Under the pieces are notes generated by a model. It was given only the letters and a program-made list of their open reading frames with translations. It was not told where the DNA came from and ran no database searches. A DNA stretch of 64,000 bases from an uncultured Holophagae bacterium (GTDB taxonomy: Bacteria; Acidobacteriota; Thermoanaerobaculia; Thermoanaerobaculales; Sulfomarinibacteraceae): positions 17,217 through 81,216 of the forward strand of contig CAVWIJ010000001.1 of NCBI GenBank assembly GCA_963754985.1, written 5' to 3'. Both the position numbers and the translations under genes were made by a program. Positions within the stretch are counted from its first letter, which is position 1. Every line of letters starts with the position of its first letter. This document shows, in pieces, positions 21,157 to 59,664 of this stretch.

Positions 21157-21925
21157 CCTTCGCTGCCCAGCGGGCAGCGAAGGTCATCCCGAGCGAGGTG
21201 CGGCATCGGCCGCTCCGAGTCGAGGGATCTCATCCCGAGCGAGGTGCGGCATCGGCCGCTCCGAGTCGAGGGATCTCATCCCGAGCGAGGTGCGGCATCG
21301 GCCGCTCCGAGTCGAGGGATCTCATCCCGAGTGAGCGGCCCGCACCTTTCTTCTGTCATCCTGAGCGAGCGGCGCGCCAGCGCCGCGAGTCGAAGGATCC
21401 CCTGCGTGCACCGCGCCCTCCCACCGGAGCCATTGGGGGATGCTTCGACTCGCGGCCGGTGGCCGCTCGCTTCCAAATAACTACGGTCCGCTCGGTTGGG
21501 GTCCCTTTGGGCCCAAGTGGATGCACTGAAGCTATTTCCGTCCCTTGTTGGCCCCCGGGGCCCTGGGGGTGCTCAGCATGACAGTGGGGGTTTATGGTCC
21601 ACCCTGAGCGAGGGCCCGCCTCCCCCTGTCACCCTGAGCGAGGCCGCAAAGCGGCCGAGTCGAAGGGTCTCCCGAACTCACGCGGGACGGTGCTCGTGTG
21701 TTGAGGGGATGCTTCGACTCGCGGCCGGCGGCCGCTCGCTCAGCATGACAGTGGGGGTGGGAGATGCTTCGACTCGTCGCTCGCCTGGCGGCTCGTGACT
21801 CGCCTCCAAATCGCTACGCTCGGCTGGGTTGGGGTCCCTGTGGGCCCAAGTAGCTACGCTGAAGTTATTTCCGTCCCCTGTCGGCCCCCGGGGCCCTGGG
21901 AGTGCTCAGCATGACATGAGGTGGC
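21157..21925. repeat. 770-bp repeat cluster: 3 tandem 46-bp hairpin units, single hairpin modules in both orientations, and two copies of a ~113-nt unit
   Basis: 46-bp units CATCCCGAGCGAGGTGCGGCATCGGCCGCTCCGAGTCGAGGGATCT lie at 21185, 21231 and 21277. The 113-nt copies lie at 21472-21584 and 21805-21916. The cluster sits between convergent genes. Confidence 0.85.
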
Positions 21926-39765: not shown

Positions 39766-42130
39766 TCAAGGGGGAAGTGACAGGTAAGAGGTGAGAGGTG
39801 ACAAATGACCGCAGAATCGGGGGTGGTGCGAGTGCCTGGAGCCGATCGCTGGTCTCGAGCGTGCGATTGAAACTTTTGATCTACAACGACTTATCGTCTG
39901 CCGCCCAGGCTTGCGTCTGGGCTTCGGCTTCGCGCCGCTGGCACCCCTGGCCTCGCCGACCGGCACGAGCTCGATCCGCAGCTCGCCGGCATCGGCGCCG
40001 ACCAGCTGCACCCGGATCCGATCGCCGAGCCGCCACACCCGCCGGTTGCGCTCCCCGACCAGCCGGTGCCGCCCCTCCTCGAAGTGGTAGAAGTCGTCGA
40101 TGAGCTCCGAGATGTGGACCAGCCCGTCGACCATGAACTCGTCGATCTGGACGAAGAGCCCGGCCTCGGTGACGCCGGAAACCGTGCCGTCGAAGCTCTC
40201 CCCCACCCGCCCCTCCAGGTAGTGGACCGTCTTCCACAGCACCGCCATCCGCTCCGCCGCCTCGGCCCGCCGCTCGGTGGTCGAGCAGCTCTCGCCGAGC
40301 CCGGCCAGCTCGAGCTCGGTCCGCTCTCGCTCGGCGCCGGCCACCGCCCGGCCCTCCGATCGCAGCCGCCGCAGCATGCGGTGCACGACGAGGTCCGGGT
40401 AGCGCCGGATCGGCGAGGTGAAGTGGAGGTAGGCGTCGGCCGCCAGCGCGTAGTGGCCGCGCGCGTCCGAGCTGTAGACCGCGCGCGCCATCGCCCGCAG
40501 CACCAGCATCGACACCAGCCGCTCCTCGGGACGGCCGGCCACCGCGGCCAGCACTCTCTGCAGCTCGATCGGAGGCAGCTCCTCGTCGGTGCCCTCCATC
40601 CTCAGCCCGAGCTCGGCCAGGGTCTCCCGCAGCGCCTTCACCCGGTCCGGGTCAGGCCGGTCGTGGACACGGTGCAGCGCCGGCTGGTCGGCGTCGAGCA
40701 GCATCCGGGCCACGCAGCGGTTGGCGGCCACCATCAGCTCCTCGATCAGCCGGTGCGCCTGGTTGCGCGCGCTCGGCCGCACCGCGGTCACCCGCCCCTC
40801 GGGGTCGAGCAGGATCTCGGGCTCGGCGAGCTCGAAGTCGAGGCTGCCCTTCCGGTGGCGCTCCCGCCCCAGCCGCTCCGCCGCCTCGGCCAGCAGCTCG
40901 AGCGAGTCCGCGAACTCCCCGACACTCCACCGGCCAGCGCTGGCGCGGCAAGGAGAGCCACCCGAAAACCTCCGCGTAGGTGCAGCGCCGGCGCGAGCGG
41001 ATCACCGACGGCGACGCCTCGGCGTGACGGATCGAGCCGTCGCGAGCCACCACGAAGCGCACCGTGTAGGCGAGCCGGTCCTCACCCTCGGCGAGGGTGC
41101 ACAGGTCGCTCGACACCCGCTCCGGCAGCATCGGCACGCAGCGTCCCGGCAGGTAGACGGAGGTGCCGCGCTCGCGCGCCTCCGCGTCGAGCTCGCTGCC
41201 CTTCCGCACGAAGTGCGACACGTCGGCGATGTGCACCTCGACCTCGATGTCGCCGCCCTTGCCCGGCGCCGCGTTCACCGCGTCGTCGAAGTCGCGCGCG
41301 TCCACGGGGTCGATGGTGATCGCCGGCCGGTCGCGCAGGTCCCAGCGCCCGGCCAGCACCTCGCCGCCAATCTCGTCCGGCAGTCGCTCGGCCTCCTCGA
41401 GTACTGCCTCGGGAAACTCGACCGGGATGCCGTGCGTCCGCAGCACCACGAGCTCCTCGATCCCAGGGTCGCCGAGCCGGCCGAGCCGCTCGAGCAGGAC
41501 GCCGCGAGCGCGCTGCCCGCGCGCCGACAGCGACTCCACCGACGCGACCAAGTAGTCTCCGTGACGCGGCTCCTCGGCGAGGCGCGACCCGGTCGGCACC
41601 AGCACGAAGCGCAGCCGGCGGTCGATCGGCTTCAGGCAGGGACGGCCGCGGTCCGCGACCCAGCGGCCGACCACCTCCTCGAGCCGGCGCTCGACCACCC
41701 GGACCACCACGCCCTCGCGCAGCCCTTCGGCGCGTGCCCGCCGCCGCGCCGACTCGAGCTGCACCAGCACCCGATCGCCGTCGAGCGCCCCGCGCAGGTG
41801 ATGGGCGTCGATGCGGATCGGCTTGGCCCGGGCGTCCGCCTCGCGCACCAGCGCGAAGCCCGCCGGCTGGCGTCGCAGCACGCCCGGGATCAGCTCCGAC
41901 GCGCCCGCCACCACGAAACGCTGGCCGCGGCCTTCGATCACCCGACCATCGCGGACCAGCTCGCGCAGGCTCTCGCGCAACAGCGTTCGCACCTCGGAGC
42001 GCCCAATCCCGAGCTCGTCGACAACCGCGGCCACCAGCATGCGCAGCGTGATCCCGCGTTGCCCGCGCTCCCGGATCAGCCTCAGGATGTTGCCCGGGCT
42101 CGTGACATCGAAGACCTGTTTGTCGTCCAT
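39766..42130 (-). CDS. rnr: Ribonuclease R, one frameshift near 40930
   Basis: Contains ITIDPVDARDFDDAV (RNB), LYLPGRCVPMLP, ARNQAHRLIEELMVAAN, HFTSPIRRYPDL, the S1 motif GTVSGVTEAGLFVQI, and a basic tail. Pieces are ORFs 40652..42304 and 39766..40791. Confidence 0.85.
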
Positions 42131-42204
42131 CGTCCCCCGACTATACGCCGCCCGGGGTTGACACCCCTTCCCCCCACGACCTACCATGCAACGCCCGCCT
42201 GGGT

Positions 42205-42291
42205 GCGAAAGTGGCGGAAGTGGTAGACGCGCAAGATTCAGGATCTTGTGCCCGCAAGGGCGTGGGGGTTCGAGTCCCCCCTTTCGCACCA
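42205..42291 (+). tRNA. tRNA-Leu, anticodon CAG, type II with long variable arm, CCA encoded
   Basis: Folded by hand. Acceptor GCGAAAG/CTTTCGC; anticodon stem CAAGA/TCTTG with loop TTCAGGA; variable arm GCCC-GCAA-GGGC; T arm GGGGG-TTCGAGT-CCCCC; then ACCA. Confidence 0.9.
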
Positions 42292-43375
42292 ACTCTCTGA
42301 TCAACCATCATCCGTCGACGCCAGCGTGGGGGTGGCTCGCGCGCTGCGCGCGCGGCGACCCGGCGGACTCTGCGGGCGGTTGTACGCCGCTCACCTCCCT
42401 CTCCGGTCGAGCTTCGCCCTCCCTGCGACCCCCCCGGCTACAACCGCATACCGCAGCCTCTCGCCGTGTGCGAGTCCCCCCTTTCGCACCAACTCTCTGA
42501 TCAACCATCGTCCTTCGACACCCGCGTGGGGGTGGCTCGCGCGCTGCGCGCGCGGCGACCCGGCGGACTCTGCGGGCGGTTGTACGGCGCTCACCTCCCT
42601 CTCCGGTCGGGCCTCGCCCTCCCTGCGACCCCCCCGGCTACAACCGCATACCGCAGCCTCTCGCCGTGTGCGAGTCCCCCCTTTCGCACCAACTCTCTGA
42701 TCAACCATCATCCGTCGACGCCAGCGTGGGGGTGGCTCGCTCGCTGCGCGCGCGGCGACCCGGCGGACTCTGCGGGCGGTTGTACGCCGCTCACCTCCCT
42801 CTCCGGTCGAGCTTCGCCCTCCCTGCGACCCCCCCGGCTACAACCGCATACCGCAGCCTCTCGCCGTGTGCGAGTCCCCCCTTTCGCACCAACTCTATGA
42901 TCAACCATCGTCCTTCGACACCCGCGTGGGGGTGGCTCGCGCGCTGCGCGCGCGGCGACCCGGCGGACTCTGCGGGCTGTTGTACGCCGCTCACCTCCCT
43001 CTCCGGTCGGGCCTCGCCCTCCCTGCGACCCCCCCGGCTACAACCCCATACCGCAGCCTCTCGCCGTGTGCGAGTCCCCCCTTTCGCACCAACTCTATGA
43101 TCAACCATCGTCCTTCGACACCCGCGTGGGGGTGGCTCGCGCGCTGCGCGCGCGGCGACCCGGCGGACTCTGCGGGCTGTTGTACGCCGCTCACCTCCCT
43201 CTCCGGTCGGGCCTCGCCCTCCCTGCGACCCCCCCGGCTACAACCGCATTCCGCAGCCTCTCGCCGTGTGCGAGTCCCCCCTTTCGCACCAACTCTCTGA
43301 TCAACCATCGTCCTTCGACACCCGCGTGGGGGTGGCTCGCGCGCTGCGCGCGCGGCGACCCGGCGGCGCTGGCGG
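42271..43375 (+). repeat. Tandem array of 200-bp units, each ending with the 21-nt 3' end of tRNA-Leu (5 full units plus a partial one)
   Basis: CGAGTCCCCCCTTTCGCACCA occurs at 42271 (the genuine tRNA), 42471, 42671, 42871, 43071 and 43271. Two unit variants are ordered A-B-A-B-B-partial. Confidence 0.95.
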
Positions 43376-43411
43376 GCGCGGCCTGTTGAGTTCTGGGCTG
43401 ACCCTCGTAAG

Positions 43412-44035
43412 ATGGCAGACCGACAAACACAGAGTCGGGATGGTGCCACCGTGAAAAATGATCACTCCCTTTTGGTCTGGGTCCTCGATCAAACCCTGGG
43501 GTTGCTCCTGAGCTCCGCGAGAACTGCCGAGCAGGAGGAGGCAGTCAAGGAACTCCGTACGCTCGCGTTGCTGCCAAAGCCGGACAAGTCAAAGCTCGAG
43601 TCGCTCGTGCATCGACTGGAGACGATGGTCTCGACCAAACCAGAGCCCATGCGAACAGAGCGCACCCTGAAACGTGCAGGAGTCATAGAGTCACGCCCTG
43701 TTCGCATAACCCTTGACCGTGAGTTGAACAGGCTGATTGAGTCCATCGGGAAGAAGTCAGCCGCGAGAAGAACTCCTGGCAAGAAGGCCGCGGTGAAGAA
43801 GACCGCCGTCAAGGCCCGCGCGAAAAAGACCACCACCAAGGCTGGCGGGAGAAAGGCCGCCGTACGGCCTGGCAGGATGAAAACCGCCGCAGAGGTTGGC
43901 GCGAAAAAGACCGCCGTCAAGGGCGGCGGGAAGAAGACCGCAGCCCTGGCTCCAAGGAAGAAGACCGCCAAGAGAGACGGCGGCAAGAAGACCGCCGCCG
44001 TCAAGAGTGTCCACAGAAAGACGACGCGAGCATGA
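43412..44035 (+). CDS. Histone H1-like / Lys-Ala-rich nucleoid-associated protein
   Basis: An N-terminal globular part is followed by a KKTA(V/A)K-type repeat tail (GKKAAVKKTAVKARAKKTTTKAGGRKAAV...GGKKTAAVKS). Local GC is visibly lower than the flanks. Confidence 0.6.
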   Translation: MADRQTQSRDGATVKNDHSLLVWVLDQTLGLLLSSARTAEQEEAVKELRTLALLPKPDKSKLESLVHRLETMVSTKPEPMRTERTLKRAGVIESRPVRITLDRELNRLIESIGKKSAARRTPGKKAAVKKTAVKARAKKTTTKAGGRKAAVRPGRMKTAAEVGAKKTAVKGGGKKTAALAPRKKTAKRDGGKKTAAVKSVHRKTTRA

Positions 44036-47311: not shown

Positions 47312-47475
47312 GAGGAGATTCCTCGACTCGTCGCCGCCTCGCGGCTCCTCGCTCGGAATGACAGTGTTGTTTGGGTCATCCCGAGCGTGGCCTCCGCCTC
47401 CCGTCATCCCGAGCAAGGCATCCTCTCTCCTGTCATCCCGAGCGAGCGGCAGAGCCGCGAGTCGAGGGATCCCCT
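47312..47475. repeat. Composite of GTCATCCCGAGCGAG..CGAGTCGAGGGATC hairpin modules in both orientations
   Basis: GAGATTCCTCGACTCG..CTCGCTCGGAATGACAG is followed by three TCATCCCGAGC modules. The same composite is seen at 51471-51610 and 56027-56215. Confidence 0.8.
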
Positions 47476-48604: not shown

Positions 48605-49857
48605 CCGCGCACCTCGCCGCGCCGCTGCGACGGCCCTTCTTCACGCCCGGCGTGCTCGTGCTGCTCGGCCTGATGGCGGTCGGTCTCGCGTTCGCGGCGG
48701 CCCGCTTCGTCCTCGGCCTCGACGCGGTGACCCACCTCAGCGACCAGTACCCGTGGGGCATCTGGATCGCCGTCGACGTCGCCACCGGCGTGGCCCTGGC
48801 GGCCGGCGGCTTCACCACCGCGGCGCTGGTCCACATCTTCCACCGGCGTCGCTACGAGGCGGTGGTCCGCCCGGCCCTGCTCACCGCCGTTCTGGGCTAC
48901 ACCTTCGTCGTCCTGGGAATCCTCGTCGACCTGGGCCGCTACTACAACATCTGGCACCCCGCCATGCCCTGGATGTGGTCCGGGCACTCGGCCCTGTTCG
49001 AGGTGGCCATGTGCGTCATGGTCTACCTCACCGTGCTCTACATCGAGTTCCTCCCGATCGTGGTCGAGCGCTTCGCGGGCCGGGTCGCGCTGCCGGGCGT
49101 GCTGCGGGCCCTCGACGCTCCCATCGAGGCGACCCTCCGCCTCCTCGACCGGACCTTTGGCCGCGCGATGTCGCTCTTCATCATCCTCGGCGTCGTCCTC
49201 TCCACCCTCCACCAGTCCTCGCTGGGCGCGCTCATGGTGCTCGCGCGCGACAAGATGAGCCCCCTGTGGTGGACCCCGATCCTGCCGCTGCTCTTCCTGC
49301 TGTCCGCGGTCGCCGTGGGCTACTCCATGGTCATCTTCGAGTCGCTGCTCTCCTCCCGGGCGTTCAAGCGCGCACCCGAGATGGACATCCTGCCGGGCCT
49401 GGCCAGGTTCCTCCCGCTGCTGCTCTTCATCTACCTCTCGTTCAAGGTCATCGACCTCGTCATCCGGGGCGCGGCCCGCCACCTGCTCGACGGCGGCGCG
49501 GCCCCGCTGCTTTTCCTGCTCGAGATCGGCGCCGGCGTGGCGGCGCCGCTCCTCATGCTGCTGTCGGAGAAGGTGCGGCGCAGCCCGGCGCTGCTGTTGA
49601 CGGCCTCGGCCCTGGTGATTTTCGGGGTGGTCCTCAATCGAATCAACGTGTTCCTGGTCGCCTACACGCCGTACTACGCCTCCCGGCCGTACTTCCCCAG
49701 CCTCGGCGAGATCGCCATCACGGTCGGGTTGGTCTCCGCCCTCGTCCTCGCCTACCGGCTCCTCGTCACCGTTCTCCCCATCCTCCCGGCAGAGGCCCAC
49801 GGCCCGTCCGGGGCGCGCGATGCGCTGCCGTCGAGCCGCGGCGCAGGAGGCGCCTGA
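48601..49857 (+). CDS. NrfD/PsrC/HybB-family integral membrane quinone-interacting subunit
   Basis: The GTG start overlaps the upstream stop (GTGA). It is a polytopic protein of about 418 aa with WGIWIAVDVATGVALAAGGF and SALFEVAMCVMVYLTVLYIEF. Confidence 0.85.
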   Translation: MTAHLAAPLRRPFFTPGVLVLLGLMAVGLAFAAARFVLGLDAVTHLSDQYPWGIWIAVDVATGVALAAGGFTTAALVHIFHRRRYEAVVRPALLTAVLGYTFVVLGILVDLGRYYNIWHPAMPWMWSGHSALFEVAMCVMVYLTVLYIEFLPIVVERFAGRVALPGVLRALDAPIEATLRLLDRTFGRAMSLFIILGVVLSTLHQSSLGALMVLARDKMSPLWWTPILPLLFLLSAVAVGYSMVIFESLLSSRAFKRAPEMDILPGLARFLPLLLFIYLSFKVIDLVIRGAARHLLDGGAAPLLFLLEIGAGVAAPLLMLLSEKVRRSPALLLTASALVIFGVVLNRINVFLVAYTPYYASRPYFPSLGEIAITVGLVSALVLAYRLLVTVLPILPAEAHGPSGARDALPSSRGAGGA

Positions 49858-49858
49858 G

Positions 49859-50990
49859 ATGGGCGCGCACGGCAGGGCCGCGCTGCTCGCGCTCCCGCTG
49901 GCATGCTTCCTCGCGGCGGCGGCCGCCGCTCAGACCTCCGCACCGGCCCGCGCGAACGCCGCCGAGCCGCGTTGCTCGCCATGTCACGTCTGCGCGAGCC
50001 CGACCCGGTCCGACCCGTGCCTGCGCCACTGCACGCGCCACGAGGGGTCGGCGGCCCTCTCTCCCGATATCGGGCCCGACGTGGTGATTCTCGACGACCT
50101 GGAGAGCCTCTACGTGCCGGTGCGCTTCAACCACCGCGCCCACGCGGGCATGGCGGGCATGGCGGGAGGCTGTGAGACCTGCCACCACTACACCCCGCCC
50201 GACGCGAACCACCCCGCCTGCAGGGACTGCCACCCGGTCGAGATCGTCCACGAGGACATCTCTCAGCCGGGGCTCAAGGGCGCCTACCACCGCGGCTGCC
50301 TGCACTGCCACGAGGAGTGGGACAGCGACACCGCCTGCGAGGTCTGCCACGAGAAGAAGCAGGGCGGAGCCCTGCACGGGACCGCGACCACGGTCTGCGA
50401 TCACAGCCACTACGAAGCTCTCGAGCTCGACGAGCTCATCGTCTTCTCGCCGCCCGACGGAGGGTGTCGAGAGCGTCCCCTTCCACCACCGGCGCCACAG
50501 CCAGCTCTACGAGCGGGACTGCACCGAATGCCACCAGCGCCAGAGCTGCTCACGCTGCCACATCCAGGGCGGCGACGAGCTGCATCCGATGCGGGGCTCC
50601 GGCCAGACGAGCCTGCACGAGACCTGCAACCGCTGCCACGACGGCCAGCGCTGCGACGACTGCCACGGCCGCGATCCCGGCGAGCTGTTCAATCACGCCG
50701 AGACCGGCTGGCGGCTGAAGGCCTACCACGGGTCCCTCGCCTGCCGCACCTGCCACGGCCACAGCGGCGCCTACCGCAAGCTCGACCGCAGGTGCACGAG
50801 CTGCCACCCCTCCGGATGGCCGGCGGCGAGCTTCGACCACCGGGTGACCGGGGTCGCGCTCGACGAGATCCACCGCGAGGCCGGCTGCGAGGACTGCCAC
50901 GCCAAGGGGCCCGCGTCACCGCCGCGCTGCGACGGCTGCCACGACGACGGCCGCGGCTTCAACGCCGCCACCGGCTTCAGCGGGGGCTGA
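49859..50990 (+). CDS. Multiheme cytochrome c (c3/Hmc-like, 13 CxxCH motifs), one frameshift near 50455
   Basis: Has a signal peptide. CxxCH motifs are CSPCH, CETCH, CRDCH, CLHCH, CEVCH (ORF 49820..), then CTECH, CSRCH, CNRCH, CDDCH, CRTCH, CTSCH, CEDCH and CDGCH (ORF 50172..50990). Confidence 0.8.
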
Positions 50991-51019
50991 TCCCGACCCG
51001 ACCACGACCGCTTCGCTCA

Positions 51020-51100
51020 TCGCGAGCGAGGCCCCATCCTCCTGTCATCCCGAGCGAGCGGCAACGCCGCGAGTCGAGGGATCCCCCGAATCGACAGACG
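51020..51100. repeat. Hairpin module TGTCATCCCGAGCGAGCGGCAACGCCGCGAGTCGAGGGATCCCCC
   Basis: Direct reading. An identical module is seen at 51555-51602. Confidence 0.8.
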
Positions 51101-51166
51101 CCGTCCCGCCACGTCTTACCAGCCGCCGCGGATTCTCTCCTTTCCAATGGTGGGGGGGTGAATCGA

Positions 51167-51517
51167 ATGGACAGTTGCGCGGTGTACTTCCTGACCAACC
51201 GGCACCAGACCGTGCTCTACGTTGGTGTCACCTCCAATCTCCGCAAGCGACTCGCGGAGCATCTCGCCGGGGTTCATCCCTCGAGCTTCACACACAAGTA
51301 CAACGTGGATCGGCTCGTGTACTTCGAGCTCACCGCGGACATTCGCGCAGCGATTGCCCGAGAGAAGCAGATCAAGAAGTGGTCACGGTGGAAGAAGGTG
51401 GAGTTGATCGAAGCAGTCAATCCTGACTGGAAGGATCTCGGTGAGGATGTGCGCGCCGAGGTCCTTTCGGGAGATTCCTCGACTCGTCGCTCCTGTGGAG
51501 CTCCTCGCTCGGAATGA
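51167..51517 (+). CDS. GIY-YIG nuclease superfamily protein (UPF0213-like)
   Basis: Contains VYFLTNRHQTVLYVGVTSNLRKRLAEH and REKQIKKWSRWKK. The last ~15 codons run into a repeat module. Confidence 0.75.
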   Translation: MDSCAVYFLTNRHQTVLYVGVTSNLRKRLAEHLAGVHPSSFTHKYNVDRLVYFELTADIRAAIAREKQIKKWSRWKKVELIEAVNPDWKDLGEDVRAEVLSGDSSTRRSCGAPRSE

Positions 51518-51740
51518 CAGGTAATGGGGGTCATCCCGAGCAAGGCATCCTCTTCCTGTCATCCCGAGCGAGCGGCAACGCCGCGAGTCGAGGGATCCCC
51601 CGAATCCACAGACGCCGTCCAGCCGCGGCGTAGCCAACCGCGACTTGTCACGGCGTAGCCAGAGGCGAAGCCGGAAGCCGGAAGCCGCAGTCGGCCTGTC
51701 ACGGCGAAGTGCAAAGCACGGAGCCGGAAGGGATCCCCAC
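51471..51740. repeat. Composite hairpin modules followed by TGTCACGGCG..GCCGGAAG units
   Basis: Direct reading. The sequence shares more than 40-nt blocks with 47312-47475, 56027-56215 and 56850-56925. Confidence 0.8.
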
Positions 51741-51875
51741 CGTCAACGAGCGCCACCCGCAACCCGTCCCCTGCCCCGCCGTATGGACTCCGTGAGCCAT
51801 GACGTCGTCGCTGATTCGGAATCACTCCTGAAACTCGCCCAGCACACCGCGCCGGCGCGCGCGGAAGGAGAGGCC

Positions 51876-53305
51876 ATGAGAACGAAGCTCGCACTCACCG
51901 TCGTCGCGTCGCTGCTGCTCGCCGCCTCGTGGGCGGGCGCCGAGGAGGTCGCCGGCCTGCCGCTGCACGTCCAGCGGCTCGACCCGGGCACGATCCGGGT
52001 CTGGGTCGGCGACTCCATCTCGTCGACCGCGATGGTCGCCTTCGCGACCGAGAAGGGCATCGTGGTCGTCGACACCTTCGGCATCCCGAAGGTCGACGCC
52101 GAGCTGCGCACGGTCATCGCCCGCGAGCTCGGCCGCACCGACTTCAGGGTCCTCATCAACACCCACGAGCACGGCGACCACACCGGCGGCAACTCGGTCT
52201 ACGCCGACTGCACCATCGTCGGCCACGAGCTCGTCGCCGCCGGGCTCGCGGAGATCGCCGGCAACCGCGAGCGGATGCTCGAGCTGGCCCCGCGCGGCTC
52301 GCCGAGCTGGAGACCGAGCTCGCGAAGGCCGAGCCCGGCTCCCCCGAGGCGGCGCGGCTCCAGGAGGACCTGACCCTCCGGCGGCTCGACTTCGAGAAGG
52401 CGAAGGCGAACCTCGCCCCGGTCCCGCCGACCGAGACCTTCTCCGACCGCATGACGCTCGACATGGGCGACACCACCTTCGAGCTGTACTGGATCGGCGG
52501 CATGCACTCGGCGAGCGACATCGCCGTCTTCGTCCCGGAGCGCGGCCTGCTGCTGACCGGCGACACCATGGCCGACGTCTGGCTCACCGACACGCCGGGC
52601 TGCCTCGCCTGCTTCAGCGCGCGGTCCGGCGTCCGCCACGACTTCCCGCTGCTGCTCGCCAACTGGGACCGGCTGCTCGCCCAGAGGGACCAGATCAAGC
52701 GTCTGCTCCCCGGCCACTGGAACGGCGAGCTGTCGATCGCCGGCGCCGAGGCCAGGGTCGAGTACGTCCGGACGCTCTGGGACGGGCGTCACCGCGGCCG
52801 TCGCGGAGGGCAAGAGCTTCGACGAGCGTCCAGACGGAGTACCAGCTCGCCAGCCCGCTTCCCCGACCTCGCGAGCAGCCCCGGCTTCGCCCAGGCCAGG
52901 CACTACGGGACCATCGCCGAGATCTGGAGCGAGGTGACCGGCCAGCAGGCGGCCGCCACCGTGCTCTTCGCCCTGATCGACCAGGGCGCCGACGAGGCGG
53001 CCGTCCGCGCGGTCGTCGCCGACCGCTCGAGCACGTCGCCGAAGTACTTCTTCGTCGAGAACGAGATCAACGGCTACGGCTACTTCTTCCTCCAGGACGA
53101 CAAGGTCGAGCAGGCGATCAGGATGTTCAGGATCAACGTCGAGCTCTTCCCCGACTCGTGGAACGTCTACGACAGCCTGGGCGAGGCGCTGCTGCGCGCC
53201 GGCTCGACCGACGAGGCGGTGGCGATGTACGAGCGCTCGCTGGTCCTCAACCCGGACAACGCCAACGGCAGGGACGCCCTGGCCAAGATCCGCGCCGCCG
53301 CCTGA
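51876..53305 (+). CDS. Secreted MBL-fold metallo-hydrolase with a C-terminal TPR-like region, at least 3 frame changes
   Basis: Has a signal peptide MRTKLALTVVASLLLAASWAGA, HEHGDH (HxHxDH), and a tail DSLGEALLRAGSTDEAVAMYERSLVLNPDNA. Shifts lie near 52290 and within 52795-52860. Confidence 0.75.
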
Positions 53306-53307
53306 CC

Positions 53308-53510
53308 GTTGTAGCGCAGGCTTCCTGCCTGCCTTGTGGGGTAGGCATCCTGCCTGCCTTGTAGGCGTGGGCATCCTGCCTGCGTCCGGAGGCATCCTGC
53401 CTGCCTTGTAGGCGCAGGCATCCTGCCTGCCTTGTAGGGTAGGCATCCTGCCTGCCTTGTGGCGTGGGCATCTTGCCCGCGTCCCAGCATCCAGCCTGCT
53501 TGTAGCGCAG
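53308..53510. repeat. Tandem ~27-28-bp units built on the hairpin GCAGGCA-TCC-TGCCTGC (about 7 copies)
   Basis: GGCATCCTGCCTGCCTTGTAGG is repeated head to tail. The same family occurs at 54500-54712, 60171-60210 and 60855-60900. Confidence 0.85.
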
Positions 53511-53718: not shown

Positions 53719-54514
53719 ATGACGGAGGCACATGCGATCGGCGGACTGGACCGGAACGTTCTCCGGCAGGAGATCCGCAACGAGTACCGGGAGGTCGCAC
53801 GGCATCCCGACCGCGGCTTCCACTTCCACACCGGCAGAACGCTCGCCCGCCTCGTCGAGTACCACGACGAGTGGCTCGAGGGCATCCCCGAGCCGGTGAT
53901 CTCGCGCTTTGCAGGAACCGGCAACCCTTTCAGCATCCGCTCCCTCGTAGCCCGGCGAACGGGTCGTGGACCTGGGGTGCGGGGCGGGCATCGACAGCTT
54001 CATCGCCGCGCGACACGTGGGCCCCGAGGGCGCGGTCGTGGGCATCGACATGACCCCGGAGATGCTGGACACGGCGCGGTCTGCAAGGGCCGAAGCCGGG
54101 ATGGAGCACCTGGACTTCAGGCAGGGCTACCTGGAGCAGATCCCGGTCGACGACGGCTGGGCCGACGTGGTCATCTCCAACGGCGTCATCAACCTCTGCC
54201 CCGACAAGGGCGTCACCTTCCGGGAGATCCATCGCGTGCTCAAGCCCGGCGGCCGCCTCCAGATCGCCGACATCCTGGTGAGCCGTCCCGTCTCCGACTC
54301 GGCCAAGCGGCGCATCGACCTGTGGACCGGGTGAATCGCCGGCGCTCTGCTGGAAGCAGAGCTCGAGGCGATTGTTCGTGGCGCGGGGTTCGAGGACTTC
54401 GAGATCACCTGGAGGAAGCCCGTGTTCGAGGGTGCACCGCAGAGCTCGAGCGCGGCCGCCTTCGGAACCGTGGGCATCAACTACCGCGCATCCAAGCCGC
54501 GCGTTGTAGGGTAG
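53719..54514 (+). CDS. ArsM-like class I SAM-dependent methyltransferase, one frameshift near 53950 and an in-frame TGA at 54332
   Basis: Contains FAGTGNPF, motif I ERVVDLGCGAGID, VVISNGVINL and LKPGGRLQIADI, then RIDLWTG-TGA-IAGALLEAELEAIVRGAGFEDFEI in the same frame. The TGA replaces the Cys of the ArsM WxGC(I/L)AGAL motif. Confidence 0.75.
54335..54372 (+). promoter_or_regulatory. Stem-loop immediately 3' of the in-frame TGA (bacterial SECIS-like candidate)
   Basis: Structure is ATCGCC-ggc-GCTCTGC-TGGAA-GCAGAGC-tcga-GGCGAT: a 7-bp upper stem and 6-bp lower stem, with the apical loop 16 nt after the TGA. Confidence 0.4.
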
Positions 54515-54712
54515 GCATCCTGCCTGCCTGATCGCCTCGCGTTGTAGCGCAGGCATCTTGCCTGCCTTGTAGCGCAGGCATCCTGCCTGACGTCTCGCGT
54601 AGGGTAGGCATCTGCCTGCCTGATCGCCTCGCGTTGTAGGGTAGGCATCCTGCCTGCCTGATCGCCTCGCGTTGTAGCGCAGGCATCCTGCCTGCCTCTG
54701 GCTGCGAACGGC
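54500..54712. repeat. Tandem ~41-bp units of the GGCATCCTGCCTGCC family (about 5 copies)
   Basis: CGCGTTGTAG(G/C)G(T/C)AGGCATCCTGCCTGCCTGATCGCCT is repeated. The first unit supplies the stop codon of the methyltransferase. Confidence 0.85.
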
Positions 54713-56342: not shown

Positions 56343-56573
56343 ATGAGCGACTCCCGCCGCGCGACCGTCTACCTCGACCCGGAGATCCACCGGGCCTTGA
56401 AGCTCAAGGCCGCCGTCTCCGATCGCTCGATCTCGGAGATGGTGAATGAGGCCGTGCGGCTCGCCCTGGCCGAGGACGCGGAAGACCTCGCAGCGTTCGA
56501 CGACCGCGTCGCCGAGCCGGACATCGACTTCGGCTCGTTCGTCAGGTCACTGAGGCGCCGTGGCCGGCTATAG
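56343..56573 (+). CDS. Ribbon-helix-helix antitoxin (RelB/ParD-like)
   Basis: MSDSRRATVYLDPEIHRALKLKAAVSDRSISEMVNEAVRLAL. It overlaps the downstream toxin gene. Confidence 0.8.
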   Translation: MSDSRRATVYLDPEIHRALKLKAAVSDRSISEMVNEAVRLALAEDAEDLAAFDDRVAEPDIDFGSFVRSLRRRGRL

Positions 56574-56829
56574 CCTCCGGATCAAGCCCTCGGCCGCAAA
56601 GGAGGTCGAGGCCATCGAGCCGAGGAAGCTCCGCCGTCAGGTTGTTGAGCATATCCGGCGGCTCGCCACCGACCCGCGACCGGGGGGCTGCGAGAAGTTG
56701 GCCGGCGGATCGGGTCGCTATCGGCTCCGCCAGGGGGCCTACCGGATCGTCTACTCGATCGAGGACGATGAGCACGTCGTCGTGGTGTTCAAGGTGGGCC
56801 ATCGGAGCGAGGTGTATCGAGATCGCTGA
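56560..56829 (+). CDS. RelE/ParE family toxin
   Basis: 89 aa with KLAGGSGRYRLRQGAYRIVYSIEDDEHVVVVFKVGHRSEVY. Confidence 0.85.
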   Translation: MAGYSLRIKPSAAKEVEAIEPRKLRRQVVEHIRRLATDPRPGGCEKLAGGSGRYRLRQGAYRIVYSIEDDEHVVVVFKVGHRSEVYRDR

Positions 56830-57240: not shown

Positions 57241-59664
57241 ATGGAGGGACGACTCATGAGTAGCTCGATACTGAAGAGAGGCTCGCCGGTTCTCTTCACC
57301 TGCGCGCTGCTGGCGTTCGCAGCCGCCGGTGTGATCGGCGATGACGATGGCTCGCCCAACGAGGCGAAGATGTACCGAGTCACGATCCAGAACCTCACTC
57401 CCGGCCAGCCCCTGTCGCCGCCGGTGGCCGCCACGCACCGGGGCGGCTTCCGCCTCTTCAGGGTTGGCGACGAGGCCTCGTCCGAGCTCGAGGCGATCGC
57501 TCGAGACGGTGACGAGGTTCCGATGCACGACCTGCTCGCCGGCCTCAGCCACGTGTTCGACGTGGTGGACGTGGGGGTGCCGCTGACGCCGTACGGATCG
57601 GTGGTTGGCGATGTCACCGACGCGGCCGAGTTCCTGATCGAGGGGCGCAACGGGGACAAGATCTCGCTGGCGTCGATGCTCGTCTGCACCAACGACGGCT
57701 TTGTCGGCCTCAACCGCGCCGAGCTTCCCGACACGGGGTCGAGCGTGTTCACGTTGCGCGGGTACGACGCCGGAGCCGAGGACAACACCGAGCTCAGTCC
57801 GGACATCGTCGACGCGTGCAGTGCCCTCGGCCCGCTGGTCCTGAACGGCGACCCCAACGGCAACGAGAACGCGGCGGTCAACACCGTGCCGCGCGGTGTG
57901 ATCGCGGCCCACCACGGCGTGCTCGGGGTCGGCGACCTCGGCGCGATCCACGAGATCCCGGCAGGGGTCGCGAAGGTCACCATCACCCGGGTATCGGACA
58001 GCGGCCGTGAGTTCTCGACGACTCTGAGCGGGGTCGGCGAGGTGCCGGTGGTTCAGACCGATGCCTCGGGAGAGGCCCGATTCAAGCTCGGCAACCGACA
58101 CGGTGACGACGACGATGACGACGATGGCGACGACGACGAAGACGACGGCGACGGCGATGACCGCATGTACCGCGCTGAGGCCCGCCTGCTGCCGTCCAGT
58201 GGGCCCCGGGGCGACGACGAGTCGCTGAGCTACCGGGTGTCGGCCGAGGACATCGTCGACGTGGTCGCGGCCCACATCCACGCCGGGCTGCCGAACGAGA
58301 GCGGCCCGATCGTGGCGACCCTGTACGGTCCGGCGGCCCCGTCGGGACCGGTGGACGGCACCTTCGCCCGGGGAACGCTGACGCCGGCCGACCTCGACGG
58401 AGGCCCATTCGCAGGAGACTGGGAGGGCTTCCTCGCGGCAATGGGACGGGGCGAGCTGTACGTGAACGTCCACACGGTGGAGTTCCCGGCCGGTGAGATC
58501 CGTGGCCAGGTCGGCGTCCGCAAGGGTGGTGGAGGAGGCGTCAACCTCAACCGTCCGCCCGACGGCGTCATCACCTCGCCGCCCGGCGACGTGGCGATCG
58601 CGCCCGGTGAGTCGGTGTTCTTCGAGGGCATGGCGAGCGATCCGGACGGCGACCCGGTTACCGTCGAGTGGGACTTCGGCGACGGCACCAGCTCCCCCGA
58701 CCTGGCGCCCGGCGACCACACCTACAACGACCCCGGCGTCTACCTGGTGACCTTCACCGCCACCGACGACCAGGGCCTCTCGGACCCGAGCCCCGACACG
58801 CGCACCATTACAGTGGGCGAGCAGAACAACCCGCCCGACGGCGTCATCACCTCGCCGCCCGGCGACGTGACGATCGCGCCCGGTGAGTCGGTGTTCTTCG
58901 AGGGCATGGCGAGCGATCCGGACGGCGACCCGGTTACCGTCGAGTGGGACTTCGGCGACGGCACCAGCTCCCCCGACCTGGCGCCCGGCGACCACACCTA
59001 CAACGACCCCGGCGTCTACCTCGTGACCTTCACCGCCACCGACGACCAGGGCCTCTCGGACCCGAGCCCCGACACGCGCACCATTACAGTGGGCGAGCAG
59101 AACAACCCGCCCGACGGCGTCATCACCTCGCCGCCCGGCGACGTGACGATCGCGCCCGGTGAGTCGGTGTTCTTCGAGGGCATGGCGAGCGATCCGGACG
59201 GCGATCCGGTCACCGTGGAGTGGGACTTCGGCGACGGCATCAGCTCCCCCGACCTGGCGCCCGGCGACCACACCTACAACGACCCCGGCGTCTACCTCGT
59301 GACCTTCACCGCCACCGACGACCAGGGCCTCTCCGACCCGACCCCCGACACGCGCACCATCACCGTGGAGGCGGGTCCGGCGGCGGCGACCCTGACCATG
59401 GTCCAGGACGCCATCTTCACGCCGAGCTGCACGGGGTGCCACGGCGGATCGAATCCCACCGCCGAGCTGAACCTCGAGCAAGGCCAGGCGCACGGCGACC
59501 TGGTCAACGTCCCGGCCACCACGCAGCCCGGGGTGCGGGTGATCCCGTTCGACGCGGACAACAGCGTCCTGGTGATCTTCCTCGACGACGGTCACCGCAA
59601 CCTGCCCGCGGACGACCGGCAGATGATCCGGTCGTGGATCGACGCGGGCGCGCTCGACAACTGA
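57241..59664 (+). CDS. Secreted multidomain protein: spondin_N, CHRD (with poly-Asp insert), 3 x PKD, C-terminal PSCyt-like CxxCH domain
   Basis: The spondin_N region has YRVTIQNLTPGQPLSPPVAATH...LVCTNDGFVGLN. The CHRD region has LSGVGEVP...AAHIHAGLPNESGPIV...LYVNVHTVEFPAGEIRGQV. The PKD units have VEWDFGDG...HTYNDPGVYLVTFTATDDQG. The C-terminal domain has IFTPSCTGCHGG...WIDAGA. Confidence 0.8.
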   Translation: MEGRLMSSSILKRGSPVLFTCALLAFAAAGVIGDDDGSPNEAKMYRVTIQNLTPGQPLSPPVAATHRGGFRLFRVGDEASSELEAIARDGDEVPMHDLLAGLSHVFDVVDVGVPLTPYGSVVGDVTDAAEFLIEGRNGDKISLASMLVCTNDGFVGLNRAELPDTGSSVFTLRGYDAGAEDNTELSPDIVDACSALGPLVLNGDPNGNENAAVNTVPRGVIAAHHGVLGVGDLGAIHEIPAGVAKVTITRVSDSGREFSTTLSGVGEVPVVQTDASGEARFKLGNRHGDDDDDDDGDDDEDDGDGDDRMYRAEARLLPSSGPRGDDESLSYRVSAEDIVDVVAAHIHAGLPNESGPIVATLYGPAAPSGPVDGTFARGTLTPADLDGGPFAGDWEGFLAAMGRGELYVNVHTVEFPAGEIRGQVGVRKGGGGGVNLNRPPDGVITSPPGDVAIAPGESVFFEGMASDPDGDPVTVEWDFGDGTSSPDLAPGDHTYNDPGVYLVTFTATDDQGLSDPSPDTRTITVGEQNNPPDGVITSPPGDVTIAPGESVFFEGMASDPDGDPVTVEWDFGDGTSSPDLAPGDHTYNDPGVYLVTFTATDDQGLSDPSPDTRTITVGEQNNPPDGVITSPPGDVTIAPGESVFFEGMASDPDGDPVTVEWDFGDGISSPDLAPGDHTYNDPGVYLVTFTATDDQGLSDPTPDTRTITVEAGPAAATLTMVQDAIFTPSCTGCHGGSNPTAELNLEQGQAHGDLVNVPATTQPGVRVIPFDADNSVLVIFLDDGHRNLPADDRQMIRSWIDAGALDN
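58555..59370 (+). repeat. Three near-identical 276-bp (92-codon) tandem repeats encoding the PKD domains
   Basis: Unit starts (CCGCCCGACGGCGTCATCACC) are at 58555, 58831 and 59107. Only a handful of differences between units are seen by eye. Confidence 0.9.

Follow-up and report, generated by a model that had tools for sequence, protein, structure and literature searches.

Here we analyse 64,000 nucleotides (nt) of DNA from an uncultured Holophagae bacterium (contig CAVWIJ010000001.1, positions 17,217 to 81,216; hereafter, the window), in which the 3′ end of a transfer RNA (tRNA) gene, tRNA-Leu(CAG), opens an array of 200-bp tandem repeats. The array is probably a tandem amplification of a piece of the tRNA-Leu 3′ flank that carries a lineage-specific structured RNA module. 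To judge from sequence comparison, the piece most likely multiplied through unequal recombination rather than through repeated integration of a mobile element. The module is best read as a previously uncatalogued structured RNA, apparently confined to a small uncultured Thermoanaerobaculia-like clade.

The tRNA-Leu(CAG) gene lies at 42205–42291 on the + strand (ARAGORN; 55.4 bits with the Rfam tRNA model). Its last 21 nt, from C56 of the T-loop through CCA (42271–42291), are the first of exactly six occurrences of the 21-mer CGAGTCCCCCCTTTCGCACCA (at 42271, 42471, 42671, 42871, 43071 and 43271), for which the chance expectation is 0. An earlier reading of this DNA from its letters alone (the sequence-only reading) had described a tRNA end that recurs five more times at an exact 200-bp period, a unit order of A-B-A-B-B-partial and a stop in mid-unit near 43366. 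All three descriptions hold. The period is recovered by exact matching and by Tandem Repeats Finder (42271–43378, period 200, 5.5 copies, 96% matches, no indels), and unit alignment gives five full units, U1–U5 (starting at 42271, 42471, 42671, 42871 and 43071), followed by a sixth unit of 96 nt (array 42271–43366, + strand). U1 and U3 are of type A, U2 and the partial unit are of type B, and U4 and U5 form a sub-type of B, B′ (27A, 108T). The partial unit is identical to type B for exactly 96 nt, to 43366, and diverges from 43367. Twelve of the 200 positions vary among the units, some of them in a 42-nt spacer (42292–42333, + strand) that recurs at +200 bp in every unit and bears A/B variable sites. 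Pairwise identities range from 95 to 99.5%, with 99.5% between U1 and U3 and 99.0% between U4 and U5, the two pairs that would stem from the latest duplications. The CGCGCGC-TGC-GCGCGCG hairpin, previously assigned to every unit, is perfect in five of the six; unit 3 carries a G-to-T change at 42741.

A sigma-70-like promoter (TTGACA, 18-nt spacer, TACCAT; 42158–42187, + strand) precedes the tRNA gene. It is the only promoter-like site in a scan of 41900–43700, and no promoter or terminator was detected inside the units. Two candidate signals in the array were rejected: a derivation of the unit tail from the tRNA promoter and leader, for which the local alignment scored no higher than shuffles (p = 0.77), and the invariance of the 21-mer within the array as a sign of constraint, which is not significant (P of around 0.26 that none of the 12 variable sites falls inside it).

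Around nine related contigs (given here by L numbers) were recovered by a metagenome scan and by look-ups through neighbouring or spurious open reading frames (ORFs). These are short-read assemblies, which can collapse 200-bp repeats, so that their copy numbers are minimum values. The arrangement of RNase R and tRNA-Leu is found in the nearest named genomes, which are Thermoanaerobaculia at around 70% nucleotide identity (L078, L053 and L079, of which L078 is Ca. Sulfomarinibacteraceae). In every close-clade relative found, unit sequence stands directly 3′ of tRNA-Leu, and the flanking genes are syntenic, with RNase R upstream and a histone-like gene, a PemK pair and an ERCC4 gene downstream in the same order. 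The tRNA-Leu promoter is kept in L135, L136, L144, L145 and L147. The unit therefore reads, on this comparison, as native tRNA-Leu 3′ flank and not as foreign DNA.

Unit number varies among the relatives, as the sequence-only reading had suggested it might: there are no intact modules in L136, one each in L135, L138, L144, L145 and L128, and two, diverged from each other, in L147, compared with five in the window. In L121 and L136 (85–90% identical), the tRNA is followed by unit positions 1–144 once and then by the promoter and histone-like gene seen in the window, PemK and ERCC4; in L136 the 3′ half of the module has been lost and a second copy is absent. L138 has the tRNA, a unit, a perfect second 21-mer, a flank like that of the L128 tRNA and a rubrerythrin-like gene; farther on, a tRNA-Leu fragment (positions 27–65) is fused to the unit hairpin and the truncated terminal unit, ahead of the histone-like gene. 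A third kind of flank follows the unit and 21-mer in L142 and L145. Two units are joined tail-to-hairpin without an intervening 21-mer in L135, the first alone being an intact module, and in L147, in which both modules are intact and around 70% identical (by eye). L128 and L129 (ERCC4 82% identical) have one diverged unit, into which 69 nt of GC-rich sequence are inserted, and their second 21-mer is truncated. Contigs L125 and L142 end inside the unit, as is usual for short-read contigs that run into repeats. The window units are around 81% identical to those of L138 and L145, compared with 95–99.5% among themselves, which points to concerted evolution of the array. The B-like signature occurs in L138 and L135 and the A-like signature in L136, L125, L144, L145 and L147; both are therefore older than this genome.

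The closest relative, L144 (unit 96.5% identical), holds the arrangement from which the array may have grown. After its tRNA come one full unit, another 21-mer at exactly 200 bp from the first and the truncated terminal unit of the window. The L144 locus can thus be written X-Y-X, in which X is 96 nt at 98% identity (2 differences in 96, with divergence from position 97), and the window as X-Y repeated with the same X at its end, the last unit diverging at the same point, after position 96. The length of X is sufficient for homologous unequal exchange, and L144 would represent a 1.5-copy precursor state on which unequal crossing-over could readily act. The count would have risen from 1.5 to 5.5 copies through replication slippage or unequal homologous recombination involving the 96-nt repeats, and later duplications would have given U1/U3 and U4/U5. 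Bacterial variable-number tandem repeats (VNTRs), or minisatellites, expand by unequal crossing-over or slippage. The array resembles them in its head-to-tail order, constant period, partial terminal copy, 1.5-copy precursor, differences in copy number and an identity within the array above that between species; it differs in that the unit begins inside a functional tRNA gene and holds a module under base-pairing selection. Unequal crossing-over of a single integration scar had been among the earlier proposals: the crossing-over is close to the data, but the supposed scar is native flank. An integrase origin of the first duplication is possible.

Each full unit contains a 147-nt module, which we aligned across relatives in two alignments, A2 and A4 (the latter after manual removal of the 69-nt L128 insert). 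Its fold comprises a GC hairpin (P1′), a long-range helix (P2), an inner hairpin (P3) and a tail. P2 has 15 + 3 pairs (18 bp) with a 3-nt bulge and encloses a C-rich unpaired stretch, CUCACCUCCCUCUCC (also written CACCUCCCUCUCC), with the consensus CCACC(U/G)CCCUCUCC. The two P2 strands change in step between lineages: 5′ CUGCGG-GCGGUUGUA faces 3′ UACAACCGC-AUA-CCGCAG in the window, CAGCGG-GUGGCCGUA faces AACGGCCAC-AAA-CCGCUG in L138, CAGCAG-ACAGCCGUA faces UACGGCUGU-GAA-CUGCUG in L135 and GGCAG-GCGGACGUA faces UACGUCCGC-ACU-CCGCUGCC in L128. Both diverged modules of L147 keep P2 perfectly, and in L138 and L128 P3 is built anew from wholly different sequence. With RNAalifold, 7 pairs covary. 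Counted on the named structure, 93% of the cells of 41 pairs are paired and 11 pairs show double changes, compared with 1–4 pairs when partners are slid and with shuffles, none of 500 of which reached the observed value. There are around 8 G-U cells for every 3 A-C cells, and the fold scores z = −3.9 on the + (tRNA) strand versus −0.9 on the − strand. These comparisons indicate that the fold has been conserved through compensatory changes across relatives.

At lenient thresholds, Rfam returned the tRNA model alone, the next best hit being SorX at 22 bits on L138, against a threshold of 46.6 bits. Our covariance model of the module, R1, scores 145–153 bits on the five window copies and 51 bits on the terminal copy. 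It has no other match in the 64-kb window and, among 76 loci, matches the close clade alone, with no match in more distant Thermoanaerobaculia or in a distant Acidobacteriota metagenome-assembled genome, L009. Elsewhere in the window, BLAST with the unit likewise found nothing. A dispersed repeat of the repetitive extragenic palindromic (REP) type, which the sequence-only reading had named as a result that would undo its case, is not what is seen: the window has no other copy and the relatives have copies near tRNA-Leu alone. A single fragment with the hairpin only lies 1.8 kb downstream in L128.

The window copies lie on the + strand. Copy 1 (A type, 42324–42470) is supported by a covariance-model match of 153.5 bits, covariation and the fold z-score. 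Copy 2 (B type, 42524–42670) carries a C-to-G change at 42587 that disrupts one pair beside P2; in copy 3 (A type, 42724–42870) the change at 42741 disrupts a P1′ pair; two P2 pairs are disrupted in copy 4 (B′ type, 42924–43070; T at 42978, C at 43046) and one in copy 5 (B′ type, 43124–43270; T at 43178). A terminal truncated module (43324–43385; 51 bits, and alignments) retains the hairpin and the start of the P2 5′ strand without its 3′ partner; its orthologues are the terminal units of L144, L138 and L142. Seven module positions vary among the five copies: changes at 5 of them break pairs, the other 2 fall in a loop or bulge, and compensation is seen at none. Since 56% of the module is paired, 5 hits in 7 on paired sites is about the neutral expectation. 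The compensation that had been proposed as a test is thus present across lineages (the 11 pairs) and absent among the A and B copies of the window. Because their private substitutions break pairs without compensation, the extra copies look recent, redundant and unconstrained.

The module sits in what appears to be a tRNA-derived frame. The last 10 nt of the spacer (GCGTGGGGGT), just before the hairpin, equal the variable-arm/T-stem 5′ strand of the tRNA, and by eye against L138 around 29 nt of the spacer resemble decayed tRNA-Leu positions 37–65. The junction between the tRNA fragment and the GGCTCGCGCGC hairpin is better preserved in two paralogous copies, in L128 (5499–5524; tRNA part 26 nt at 96%) and L138 (1242–1280; 39 nt at 87%). 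After the module tail, the 21-mer completes the T-loop and adds the 3′ strands of the T-stem and acceptor stem, ending in CCA. Set between the upstream T-stem 5′ strand and the 21-mer that follows it, the module therefore occupies the place that the T-loop would have in a pseudogene copy of tRNA-Leu. The 21-mer is not obligatory, because the modules of L135 and L147 have none between them. A co-transcribed array of small RNAs with a tRNA-like 3′ tag had been one earlier suggestion; the kept fold of the module speaks for its RNA part, co-transcription and tRNA-type processing being predicted features. The module would be transcribed from the tRNA-Leu promoter inside the 3′ trailer, and its RNA might act as a small regulatory or sponge RNA through the C-rich loop. 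A minihelix closing stem (the T-stem 5′ strand and GGCUCG pairing with the 21-mer, ACCA free) was seen in a single-sequence fold and rejected, having no covariation, being weakened by a G-to-T change in L138 and being impossible in L135 and L147; we keep it as a possibility.

Several observations weigh against amplification of a native flank with a conserved RNA. The repeat boundary falls exactly at C56 of the T-loop, the sequence past the second 21-mer takes four different forms among close relatives, and the 21-mer is perfect between units that are otherwise around 79% identical (roughly P = 0.008 under neutrality); boundary, varied flanks and kept 21-mer fit site-specific recombination no worse than homologous exchange. 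The covariation draws on around five independent lineages, and the structure was derived in part from the sequences used to test it. Such covariation could also arise from hairpins in single-stranded DNA or from template switching that corrects one inverted repeat against the other, and the strand asymmetry is modest. The window, moreover, bears two frameshifted genes (RNase R, and Lactamase_B + TPR), which bears on the quality of its assembly.

Site-specific recombination provides the first alternative, in which the units would be miniature integrative elements or decayed islands with a 21-bp T-loop attachment (att) core, an integrase elsewhere and the RNA as cargo. Cis-mobilizable elements (CIMEs) formed by decay and accretion are the model here (PMC5704250), and tandem growth would proceed through exchange between attL and attR on sister chromosomes. 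The block of identity from mid T-loop to CCA, in six exact copies, is that of T-loop-type tRNA and transfer-messenger RNA integration sites, exemplified by the 20-bp ssrA repeats of Dehalococcoides islands (PMC3146451). L138, with a perfect second 21-mer followed by the type of flank that directly adjoins the L128 tRNA, resembles an insertion with target duplication; close relatives diverge exactly past the second 21-mer; the 21-mer is better conserved than its surroundings; and the independent array of two 165-bp units in L009 ends in the same 21-mer. Against this, no integrase or recombinase remnant was found in the 21 kb downstream or on the contigs of the relatives, and no empty site was seen among the close-clade relatives, although L138 versus L128 is compatible with an old insertion. 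Past the last 21-mer, the DNA of the window and of L144 runs on as unit sequence for 75 nt and does not turn into a separate chromosomal arm, which makes the repeated block 96 nt long, in keeping with homologous exchange. In L135 and L147, modules abut with the 21-mer missing from the junction. Two junction patterns, used to look for a full element or attP, had 0 matches in viral contigs, and the unit was not found in phage and plasmid collections; in a tandem array, an attP-type junction is indistinguishable from a unit–unit junction. Like Dehalococcoides ssrA islands and CIMEs, the locus has a repeat reiterated downstream of a gene in a strain-variable region rich in toxin–antitoxin genes (PMC3146451, PMC5704250). 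Those islands, however, are kilobases long, gene-bearing and mutually different, and often encode a recombinase, whereas the units here are 200 bp, near-identical and gene-free and form the native flank in all relatives, with no recombinase found. We consider this alternative unlikely, and retain site-specific recombination mainly as a possible origin of the first duplication. Repeated integration and excision scars, as the sequence-only reading had entertained, find no support as the origin of the array, given the native flank, the synteny and the lack of an integrase or attP-type junction; nor was the full element that it envisaged at tRNA-Leu elsewhere seen in the contigs of relatives, in viral contigs or in phage and plasmid collections.

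Two candidates in these searches were rejected. The single viral match to a conserved-loop pattern (L146) is due to chance and was rejected by the covariance model. As for recombinase remnants beside the tRNA fragments of L138 and L128, an 82-amino-acid reverse-strand ORF has no Pfam match and the 172-amino-acid gene of L138 is rubrerythrin/ferritin-like.

Two bolder versions share a somewhat smaller chance. In one, the units would be tRNA-framed small RNAs of a new kind: a structured RNA seated in the T-loop of a tRNA-Leu pseudogene copy would be cut out of a polycistronic tRNA-Leu transcript by tRNA-processing enzymes acting on the tRNA halves at its sides, and could grow in copy number; in the other, the unit is a 200-bp gene-free integrative mini-element, for which the RNA may be the sole cargo and an integrase may act on the 21-bp T-loop core.

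We regard as comparably doubtful a neutral minisatellite, in which a GC-rich inverted-repeat segment expanded, the covariation came from correction of DNA hairpins and no functional RNA exists. The private substitutions that strike paired sites near the chance rate (5 of 7, with 56% paired) and the state of L136, with neither the 3′ half of the module nor a second copy, would suit it. It sits poorly with the 11 double-change pairs across lineages (1–4 in slid controls), the perfect P2 of both paralogous L147 modules, the remaking of P3 from different sequence in L138 and L128, and the G-U pairs and fold z-score that favour the tRNA strand. That an assembly error turned a 1.5-copy locus into five copies is highly improbable: L144 has 1.5 copies, and the frameshifts in two conserved genes make sequence errors conceivable, but the copies are non-identical, with three unit types and private substitutions in fixed order and are therefore unlike an over-expanded repeat, every unit is exactly 200 bp without indels even in C6–C7 runs, and collapse in the short-read relatives is likelier than expansion in the window.

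Some further tRNA-Leu copies were seen in other contigs. In L009 (3560–3960, − strand), tRNA-Leu(CAG) is followed by two 165-bp units of unrelated sequence that end in the same 21-mer; its third 21-mer copy lacks one C and leads into unique DNA, an inverted 21-mer copy lies 33 nt past CCA in each unit, and the unit fold is unremarkable (z-scores of −1.9 and −2.8). Among other Thermoanaerobaculia, partial second tRNA-Leu copies lie 100–230 bp downstream in L031 (1–420, − strand), made up of part of the D arm, a hairpin, a duplicate that resembles a promoter and tRNA positions 39–87, and in L078 (1380–1560, − strand), as a decayed copy with D-arm-like and T-arm parts.

Divergent from tRNA-Leu is the RNase R gene (39766–42133, − strand), split by a frameshift near 40921: it has two overlapping frames compared with the intact L078 orthologue, and the shift adjoins a C4 run. 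The split is either a pseudogene or an indel error. On the other side, a Lys/Ala-rich histone-H1-like gene (43451–44035, + strand), which also follows the tRNA-Leu locus in relatives, has a protein tail made from imperfect 27/54/81-bp repeats (KKTAVKAGG..., 43784–43969). A candidate promoter for it (TTGAGT, 16-nt spacer, TAAGAT; 43386–43413, + strand) was read by eye, below the scan threshold, and by eye is kept in L136, L138, L142 and L144. Beyond lie a PemK toxin–antitoxin pair, an ERCC4/HhH nuclease and an AAA_14/DUF4143 ATPase, and farther downstream redox genes, more toxin–antitoxin pairs and a PKD-repeat protein. The drop in GC content at the array end that had been noted is present and small, from 0.69 to 0.65 in 1-kb windows. 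The toxin and nuclease island thought to begin there has no boundary at that point, the histone-like, PemK and ERCC4 genes being syntenic in relatives. The reported lack of an integrase nearby stands: no integrase or Pfam recombinase match occurs among the main ORFs from 43 to 64 kb of the window, nor any among the genes called on the contigs of relatives.

Other features of the window were observed in passing. A Lactamase_B + TPR gene (51645–53305, + strand) has a frameshift near 52290 by a C4 run and is one 475-amino-acid protein in L128. Arrays of a 25-nt palindromic repeat, GCAGGCATCCTGCCTGCCTTGTAG (53289–53497 and 54484–54697), surround a truncated methyltransferase ORF (53966–54334); the palindrome, which resembles a REP-type family, also immediately precedes the promoter of tRNA-Leu in L144, L145 and L147. 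An RHH/ParE toxin–antitoxin pair at 56343–56829 (+ strand), 14 kb downstream in the window, lies between RNase R and tRNA-Leu in L121, L125, L128 and L145; toxin–antitoxin cassettes near tRNA-Leu thus appear to be reshuffled among relatives. Two more tandem repeats are a 46-bp repeat at 21184–21335 (3.3 copies, 99% identical) that includes TCATCCCGAGCGAGG, with the related motif GTCATCCCGAGC repeated at 47375–47443, and a 276-bp coding repeat at 58555–59368 (2.9 copies, 98% identical) that encodes PKD domains in an 807-amino-acid CHRD/PKD protein (57241–59664). The ORF at 49820–51517 (+ strand) joins a class III cytochrome c match to a C-terminal GIY-YIG nuclease domain, and may be two genes fused in the ORF listing or a frameshift.

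Known RNA systems provide partial parallels to an amplified module of this kind. The sibling small RNAs LhrC1–4, OmrA/B and PrrF1/2 are near-identical genes arranged head to tail, and the C-rich stretches of LhrC and RsaE pair with Shine–Dalgarno regions. The array has similar head-to-tail, near-identical copies and C-rich unpaired stretches; unlike those genes, which have their own promoters and terminators, its units have none that were detected. Ends that resemble tRNAs serve as processing signals in MALAT1/mascRNA and in tRNA punctuation. As in MALAT1/mascRNA, the module is followed by a T-loop, T-stem and acceptor 3′ strand with CCA, and here the T-stem 5′ strand precedes it; unlike MALAT1/mascRNA, it lacks an acceptor 5′ strand and a D arm and therefore a complete tRNA-like fold, and the closing helix lacks covariation and is absent in L135 and L147. 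In Escherichia coli, the 3′ external transcribed spacer of leuZ is a small-RNA sponge (Lalaouna et al. 2015, as summarized in PMC8166272). A functional RNA here would likewise ride in a tRNA-Leu 3′ trailer, with co-transcription as a prediction. In contrast to that spacer, which the summary gives as 53 nt and single-copy (PMC8166272), the module is 147 nt, highly structured and amplified, and the two have no sequence relation.

A tandem expansion of this kind is ordinary; what is new is the candidate RNA module with its tRNA frame. A T-loop-to-CCA repeat beside a tRNA gene is usually read as the footprint of an integrase, and the array cautions that such a repeat can spread through homologous exchange and can equally mark a tRNA-derived frame around an RNA, not the border of an island. 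If expressed, the module would represent an uncatalogued family of structured RNAs tied to tRNA-Leu in a poorly known phylum, and the natural series of 0, 1, 2 and 5 copies could then be used to probe its role.

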